Source: a virus (lineage: Duplodnaviria; Heunggongvirae; Uroviricota; Caudoviricetes). Taken from it: a DNA stretch of 64,000 nt. The notes beneath the pieces were generated by a model. It had not been told where the DNA came from. It did no database searches and saw only the letters and a list, made by a program, of their open reading frames with translations. Below, piece after piece: positions 33,630-33,704 of the stretch; position 1 is the stretch's first letter, and each line of letters opens with the position of its first letter. A program made the translations under genes and the position numbers. The stretch lies in the IMG/VR virus record IMGVR_UViG_2529292920_000018, positions 2,322 to 66,321 of that record, one strand, 5' to 3'.

Positions 33630-33704
33630 GTCTCTTCCCATTTTGACCCAGTTCTTCCCATAAATATCTCACTTATTCCCTGTCATTTATCTCAAGTCTA
33701 ATCA
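33630..33704. repeat. putative right terminal repeats (transposase-binding sites) of the Mu-like element
   Basis: Read inward from the end: TGATTAGACTTGAGATAAATGACAGGGAATAAG...GGGAAGAAC...GGGAAGAGA, three GGGAA-type repeats at ~21-bp spacing; terminus ...CA at 33703..33704. Confidence 0.4.

Follow-up and report, generated by a model that had tools for sequence, protein, structure and literature searches.

The window analysed here, a stretch of 64,000 nucleotides, contains a segment at 33630-33704 that raises the question of whether a transposable phage ends there and, if so, which of its two ends this is and what the repeated motifs within it are for. The initial annotation had described the segment as the right end of a Mu-like element terminating at about position 33704. 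It had also pointed out a TG/CA terminus and three GGGAA(G/T)A repeats roughly two helical turns apart, likened to the R1-R3 sites of Mu and proposed as terminal transposase-binding repeats. The results described below indicate that the segment is very probably the Mor-proximal attachment end of a BcepMu-like transposable prophage of approximately 36.8 kb, which has entered gene D of a resident P2-like prophage by transposition.

The terminus was located from homology breakpoints on both sides of the site. A 611-nt query spanning the junction matched 1926 E. coli records and, in the best of these matches, which included more than 500 complete genomes, homology broke off at query base 555, equivalent to window position 33704. 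The gene D homology of P2-like phages in the phage collection (L-413C, P2, R18C and others) began at query base 556, or window position 33705. Since the homology to E. coli stops at 33704 and that to gene D starts at 33705, the element end splits gene D, with the junction at 33704/33705, and the terminus first placed at about 33704 proved to be exact to the base. The junction in the window reads ...CTAATCA/TATAGGctccacgg, where the slash marks the boundary, while the uninterrupted gene D of L-413C reads ...gttacgccggTATAGGctccacgg. The genes flanking the element end varied among the E. coli genomes listed as matches, indicating many independent insertion sites, and the 611-nt query found the identical D-gene junction in none of the complete E. 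coli genomes. Read inward from 33704 on the minus strand, the element begins 5'-TGATTAGACTTG (longer read, TGATTAGACTTGAGATAAATGACAGGGAATAAGTGAGATATTTATGGGAAGAACTGGGTCAAAATGGGAAGAGACC). The TG/CA terminus was also confirmed: TGAT starts both ends of all full copies of the element and the TG is retained in BcepMu, B3, PM105 and phiSHP3, so that the end has the dinucleotides of a Mu-type terminus.

The arrangement is that of a prophage within a prophage, with the BcepMu-like element extending from the window start to 33704, inside a nearly complete P2-like prophage that occupies the window from 33705 to about 63500 (Table 1). The insertion created a fusion ORF in which approximately 224 D codons are followed by 10 codons contributed by the element end (...GAY-MIRLEINDRE, then stop); intact gpD in L-413C has 387 aa. 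The remainder of D, ogr and the second attachment site of the P2-like prophage must fall beyond the window start, and the insertion in D should have inactivated tail assembly of the P2-like phage.

Table 1. Coordinates of the features discussed in the text (window numbering unless another sequence is named).
Feature	Position	Strand	Remarks
Mu Gp27-family protein	19060..19605	-	Pfam Phage_Mu_Gp27, E = 1.3e-56; PhiKM annotation 'terminase small subunit, Mup27'
Transposase, 589 aa, DDE/rve type	26754..28523	+	Pfam rve only; expected binder of the end repeats
AAA+ (AAA_22/ExeA-like) ATPase	28534..29700	+	Pfam AAA_22, E = 3.6e-20; RefSeq copies annotated ExeA family
GemA	32732-33181	+	Pfam/ORF listing
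mor, Mor-family activator, last gene before the end	33153..33542	+	Pfam Mor, E = 1.3e-43; placed like BcepMu gene 1 and B3 ORF1
Imperfect hairpin followed by TTTTCAC	33550..33594	+	Inverted repeat, 16-nt arms, 81% complementary
(T/C)GGGA array, one strand, ~10-bp phase	33621..33660	-	TGGGAAGAAC / TGGGTCAAAA / TGGGAAGAGA / CCAGGAGGAA; includes GGGAA copies 2 and 3
GGGAAGA, copy 3	33633-33639	-	Pattern match
GGGAAGA, copy 2	33653-33659	-	Pattern match
23-bp repeat 2, positions 33-55 from terminus	33650..33672	-	Core GAGATATTT at 33662-33670
GGGAATA, copy 1, positions 25-31 from terminus	33674..33680	-	Within 3' part of 23-bp repeat 1
23-bp repeat 1, positions 10-32 from terminus	33673..33695	-	Core GAGATAAAT at 33685-33693; opposite-end counterpart GCGATAAAT, at equal distance from terminus
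Truncated gene D of P2-like prophage	33673..34377	-	Phage_GPD match; 234-codon fusion ORF
Element terminus, 5'-TGAT inward	33701..33704	-	TG = 33703-33704, CA on + strand
TATAGG, predicted right-hand TSD copy	33705..33710	+	Single copy in intact L-413C gene D; 6-bp rule
P2-like prophage genes	33705 to ~63500		U, T, FII, FI, terminase P 51865-53667, portal Q 53667-54701, gpA 57555-59882, integrase 62405-63418
Mu c-end array	L182 (AF083977 left end), positions 31-80		CGGGAGGACA / TTGGATTATT / CGGGATCTGA / TGGGATTAGA; 10-bp-phased, one strand
GAAA(A/G)AATT-like motif	L002 5813-5825; L173, L175, L179, L181, positions ~68-82 of other ends

A stretch of the P2-like prophage between portal gene Q and replication gene A (55000-57000) had a low GC content, 35-41% vs. 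about 55%, and the two minus-strand ORFs within it, 55050-55832 and 55942-56715, had no Pfam match. P2-like phages carry variable cargo, defence genes for example, at the Q/A position.

The element is a BcepMu/B3-type transposable phage that public databases already contain and that about a tenth of the complete E. coli genomes carry. Its DNA was 99.6% identical to that of Escherichia phage PhiKM, which is classed as a Bcepmuvirus. The genes fall into a minus-strand block (Mu-type Gp27, large terminase, Mu portal, Mu F and P2-like tail genes), a central block with a repressor and a Dam-type methylase, and a plus-strand block that encodes the rve transposase, an AAA_22/ExeA-like ATPase, Gam, GemA and Mor. 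The transposase was 68% identical to that of BcepMu (67.8% by tblastn), 56% identical to transposase A of B3 (56.3%) and 43% identical to that of phiSHP3, and the BcepMu and B3 matches covered 98-100% of the protein. The Pfam search of the transposase matched rve alone and none of the Mu transposase domains, and its PDB sequence matches at E <= 1 included neither MuA nor TnsB, only marginal matches to retroviral integrase cores. The best NCBIfam match, IS481, was weak and sub-threshold. A single-sequence AlphaFold model of the transposase had a mean pLDDT of 46 and a pTM of 0.24, which made it unsuitable for searching by fold. From its gene position, we infer that the AAA_22 ATPase is the transposition partner analogous to MuB. 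The term Mu-like is thus appropriate in that the segment is a genuine end of a transposable prophage with the lifestyle of Mu, but the transposase that serves it is of the BcepMu/B3 rve type and not MuA.

The mor gene ends 162 bp from the terminus. In the records of BcepMu, B3, JBD25, PM105 and phiSHP3, the early arm is inverted and the gene order at the left end starts with mor. Consequently, the end in question, which had been called a right end, is the left end on the maps of the BcepMu/B3 family. The hairpin downstream of mor, located just inside the end region, is probably the terminator of the mor transcript, and the adjacent sequence TTTTCACAT.CTG was conserved in relatives. When 33400-33900 was scanned for promoters and terminators, one weak outward promoter-like match was found at chance level (33595-33622; sigma-70-like, TTCACA-16-CATATT), and the surrounding TTTTCACAT.CTG..AG was conserved in relatives. 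The match could provide read-out into the flanking host DNA or may be a mere tail of the mor terminator.

The window begins within the tail-fibre gene of the element, so that its opposite end falls outside. A full copy in strain AH20I049 (L002, NZ_CP196267.1) extends from 5746 to 42591, a length of 36,846 bp. In full copies, the opposite, non-Mor end adjoins a Gin-like recombinase and begins TGATGCGCC (inward read, TGATGCGCCGCGCGATAAATGCACTCTATCTTGTGCGATAAATGGCATCC). This end was present in about 600 of the 5426 complete E. coli genomes, and homology among them opened exactly at the first T. The target-site duplication (TSD) was exactly 6 bp in all five E. coli insertions (TAGAAT, GGAGGC, CTCAGG, GCAGGG and AGTAAT) and in all three insertions from IMG/VR contigs (ATGTGC, CCTACC and GCAGCC), so the 5-bp flanking direct repeat anticipated in the initial annotation was replaced by one of 6 bp in eight of eight cases. 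The copy in L006 (NZ_CP020055), an internally deleted remnant, was left out of this set. Composite empty sites with a single copy of the TSD were identical to other E. coli genomes over their whole length (160/160 nt, 100%). The varied flanks, the uniform 6-bp TSDs and the empty sites show that the element inserts nearly at random with a short duplication, as BcepMu/B3-type phages do.

The 6-bp rule predicts that the TSD of the insertion in the window is TATAGG, of which one junction is visible here. The opposite end of the same copy is predicted to lie approximately 36.8 kb upstream, where TGATGCGCC... would be preceded by ...CCGGTATAGG. The predicted left junction is ...CCGTTACGCCGGTATAGG then TGATGCGCCGCGCGATAAATG, which would correspond to the remaining gene D with the second TATAGG. 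The Mor end itself had no match in the collection of genome contigs, and the lack of a match there to the predicted left junction, TATAGG plus TGATGCGCC..., therefore carries no weight.

The two ends were compared by numbering nucleotides inward from the terminus, position 1 being window 33704 at the Mor end. Both ends opened with TGAT (positions 1-4) and had G(A/C)GATA twice, at 12-17 and again at 35-40; the full core motif, G(A/C)GATA(A/T)(A/T)T, occupied positions 12-20 and 35-43 of both ends, a spacing of 23 bp. The cores were GAGATAAATG and GAGATATTTATG at the Mor end and GCGATAAATG and GCGATAAATG at the opposite end. Three of the four read G(A/C)GATAAATG, the departure from GATAAAT being core 2 of the Mor end (GAGATATTT). 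The counterpart at the opposite end that a true terminus calls for was therefore found, with the TGAT and G(A/C)GATA cores at identical positions, but it did not include GGGAA.

The agreement between the ends, 24 of the first 45 positions, was equalled by only 5 of the 127,910 45-mers of the window. GMGATAWWT occurred three times in the whole window, twice in this end on one strand 23 bp apart, and such a pair of cores arose in 3 of 1000 shuffles. Alignments of relatives whose transposases were 66-93% identical gave clear phylogenetic footprints: the terminal 19-20 nt and the second core were invariant at both ends, while the spacer at positions 21-32 diverged at both. The same two-core layout was present at both ends of BcepMu, B3, PM105 and phiSHP3. 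The ends of phiE255 and BcepMu have been described as carrying 23-bp imperfect direct repeats, proposed to be transposase sites (PMC2920897), and BcepMu-type transposases as being related to that of Tn552, with TG...CA termini (PMC2628397). The E. coli element likewise has 23-bp imperfect direct repeats at both ends, as expected of the BcepMu/B3 type, and the comparison of ends makes it likely that repeats 1 and 2 are the transposase-binding sites.

A mechanism can be proposed in which the 589-aa transposase would bind the two 23-bp direct repeats of each end and pair the two ends. The transposase would then nick next to the terminal CA, and the 3' ends would be joined, with a stagger of 6 bp, to a target chosen by the AAA+ protein, as happens in Mu and Tn552. 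Following replicative transposition, the terminase would recognise the Mor-side end and fill the head toward the gin end.

The three GGGAA(G/T)A repeats that drew attention to the segment were present as reported, on one strand and with start-to-start spacings of 21 and 20 bp. GGGAAKA occurred 20 times in the window, 11.3 occurrences being expected, and no same-strand triple of GGGAA(G/T)A within 50 nt was obtained in 1000 mononucleotide shuffles of the window; the cluster exceeds chance. Copy 1 sits in the divergent spacer and was replaced by unrelated sequence in two close relatives (L068 and L074); a G-run occupied its position in BcepMu, B3, PM105 and phiSHP3. Copies 2 and 3 belong to the longer (T/C)GGGA array, in which the GGG triplets at positions 46-48, 56-58 and 66-68 were invariant in relatives. 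In the E. coli element and in BcepMu, B3, PM105 and phiSHP3 alike, the top strand of the Mor-side end had GG(G/A)A motifs near positions 45, 55, 65 and 75. At the other ends there were between zero and two such motifs, and the bottom strand had almost none; the opposite end of the E. coli element had no GGGAA and, in positions 21-100, no GG(G/A)A. The enrichment was significant within the E. coli element (P = 0.002) and within BcepMu (P = 0.013), and was not individually significant in B3, PM105, phiSHP3 or Mu. The c-end of Mu has GGGA at positions 33, 53 and 63 and TGGAT at 43. The left ends of D3112 and DMS3 had no clear phasing, so the phased array is not universal among Mu-like phages. A G-run near position 46 was also seen at the other ends of BcepMu and phiSHP3, and the GGGA at position 46 could equally be the 3' half of repeat 2.

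The proposal that the GGGAA motifs are the terminal transposase-binding repeats was thus half right: the end does carry direct repeats, but GGGAA, absent from the opposite end, probably does not mark the main sites. Tentatively, and with somewhat more doubt than assurance, we suggest that copies 2 and 3 do not serve the transposase as core sites and that the array is a pac signal, which would be read by a small terminase of the Mu Gp27 type for headful packaging from the Mor end. In Mu, pac is reportedly situated at about nt 32-58 of the left end, and the GGGA run of the Mu c-end falls in what is presumably the L1-L2 spacer, where Mu pac was mapped. A broader and slightly more speculative version is that the phased (T/C)GGGA array is a conserved pac, read by Mu-Gp27-type small terminases and common to Mu and the BcepMu/B3-type phages despite their unrelated transposases and the inverted early arm. 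The packaging genes of the element are of the Mu type (Gp27, portal and F), and its Gp27-family protein is the candidate reader of the array. BcepMu is reported to package by a headful mechanism from a pac at the left, Mor-side end, with host DNA attached, and a left-end pac is described for phiE255 too (PMC2920897).

Other functions of the repeats have to be weighed against a pac signal. In the first, the GGGAA(G/T)A motifs would belong to three bipartite sites for the transposase, each 21-23 bp long (positions 11-33, 34-54 and 55-75) and consisting of a GAGATA-like half and a GGGAAGA half; the end would then carry a triple like R1-R2-R3 and the other end a weaker two-site set. Several observations are in accord with this arrangement, 1) the spacings are 21 and 20 bp, 2) every GGGAA lies 11-14 bp past a TGAGATA or TGGGTCA element, 3) copies 2 and 3 are invariant in relatives and 4) bipartite sites are typical of multi-domain DDE transposases (MuA and TnsB, for example), whose two ends are often asymmetric. 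However, the other end, which must bind the same transposase, lacks both GGGAA and, in positions 21-100, GG(G/A)A; copy 1 gives way to unrelated sequence in L068 and L074; the G-motifs of other lineages recur every 10 bp and not every 21-23 bp; and the offset from GAGATA to GGGAA is not fixed, varying from 11 to 14 bp. Three bipartite sites are, on balance, unlikely.

The phased G-array might instead be an accessory architectural element, neither core site nor pac: a phased bend, or a site for HU, IHF or another phage protein, that distinguishes the ends or aids transpososome assembly. The array is indeed specific to one end, confined to one strand and phased with the helical repeat, and HU acts in the equivalent L1-L2 spacer of Mu. 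Nevertheless, HU lacks a sequence specificity that would conserve GGGA, an IHF-type consensus was not noticed by eye in the stretch, and conservation across gamma- and beta-proteobacterial hosts is better explained by a phage-encoded reader, so that an architectural role appears improbable. That the repeats are functionless features of chance or composition in the untranslated tail past the mor terminator can be dismissed almost entirely, short as the motifs are and short and AT-rich as the stretch is, for the clusters appeared in 0 and 3 of 1000 shuffles and the motifs keep their positions in phages with no more than 43-68% identity between transposases, a conservation that already contradicts chance.

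If the array is indeed a pac signal, the end from which packaging starts could be predicted from sequence in transposable prophages of this kind, and the packaging signal would have kept its association with the head module and the end through a replacement of the transposition module. As a testable pac candidate, the end-specific GGGA array shared with the left end of Mu is the only part of the analysis with wider reach.

Among the closest known systems are BcepMu and phiE255, which resemble the element in several features: the transposase is homologous (68% identity, BcepMu), mor abuts the end, the termini are 5'-TG and two cores of the G(A/C)GATA(A/T)(A/T)T type lie about 23 bp apart at both ends. 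They also share the asymmetry of the ends, the Mor end being purine-rich terminally, vs. a GC-rich other end with GCGC(C/G)GCGC, and the GGGA array occurring at the Mor end only. In contrast, the end sequences have diverged (29/45 and 28/45 identities), and the host is E. coli, in which the element is very widespread. The E. coli element also has a Gin-like invertase and an invertible tail-fibre segment, while BcepMu is without one (PMC2628397). This segment (L002 5824-7368) comprises the Gin-like serine recombinase and alternative tail-fibre gene fragments and resembles the invertible host-range switch G of Mu.

B3 and B3-like phages (Beetrevirus) and Stenotrophomonas phage phiSHP3 have more distant transposases (56% for B3 and 43% for phiSHP3) and share the inverted early arm, mor at the left end, the two-core architecture and the phased GG(G/A)A array specific to the Mor end. 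Unlike the E. coli element, they are siphoviruses with other late genes, and their cores are more degenerate (GAGAAATA and GCGCAATAAAT).

The element was also set against phage Mu and its attL and attR ends (L1-L3 and R1-R3). The two phages have in common the transposable lifestyle, TG/CA termini, direct repeats at about two-turn spacing, an AAA+ partner that selects the target, the Gp27, portal and F packaging genes, and a phased GGGA run, which in Mu occupies positions 33-66 of the c-end. The R end of Mu opens with TGAAGCGGCGCAC, which resembles TGATGCGCCGCGC at the opposite end of the element (17/22 identities, a raw count over the first 22 nt). However, the Mor end matched the Mu ends only at background level (9 and 11 of 22 positions; 18 and 16 of 45), the transposase is not MuA, no MuA 22-bp consensus was found, each end has two shared sites rather than three, and the TSD has 6 bp where that of Mu has 5 bp. 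Inversion of the early arm places mor, and not the repressor gene, next to the packaging-proximal end. The suggested likeness to R1-R3 is therefore an analogy and not a sign of membership, because the transposase is of the rve-only, BcepMu-related type, and the end has two shared cores where three MuA-consensus sites would be expected.

The transposase of Tn552 recognises a pair of 23-bp motifs, directly repeated, at each end of the transposon, has an ATP-binding partner and makes 6-7-bp duplications. The two-repeat ends, 6-bp TSD and AAA+ partner of the element fit this description, a comparison made at the level of features. Unlike the element, Tn552, from Staphylococcus aureus, is not a phage but a small resolvase-bearing transposon, and it lacks a packaging signal. 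BcepMu-type transposases are reported to be related to its transposase (PMC2628397).

Taken alone, the location of the end is routine annotation: one boundary of a BcepMu-like prophage carried by roughly a tenth of complete E. coli genomes has been fixed to the base, and details have been corrected, namely the repeats common to both ends, the duplication of 6 bp rather than 5 bp and a transposase that is not MuA. With exact ends and the TSD rule, the insertions of this phage can be mapped automatically. Such mapping matters for the genes that are disrupted, here a tail gene of a P2-like prophage and elsewhere the csrB promoter, irp2 and yehY.

Several minor observations were made on other copies. 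In strain AH20I049, a blood isolate, the element lies between csrB and syd (L002 5733-5746 and 42591-42597), and its TSD, TAGAAT, is only about 7-12 bp upstream of the 5' end of csrB, inside the promoter of the CsrB RNA. This insertion may alter Csr regulation. The internally deleted remnant at L006 29190-38925 (NZ_CP020055.1) lies in an alanine racemase gene; what survives is the gin end together with the lysis genes and some of the head genes, and the transposase arm is gone.

The GenBank record of PhiKM (L001, PQ738613.1) is permuted, with approximately 330 bp of apparently bacterial DNA (20247-20576) between the tail-fibre and Mor ends. The inserted sequence is annotated 'Fe2+ ABC transporter permease', and the record has no gin or invertible segment. 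It looks like an assembly through packaged host DNA.

Finally, a GAAA(A/G)AATT-like motif recurs approximately 70-80 bp from the terminus at the non-Mor end in the E. coli element, BcepMu, B3, PM105 and phiSHP3, despite differing adjacent genes, and may be a third cis site specific to that end.
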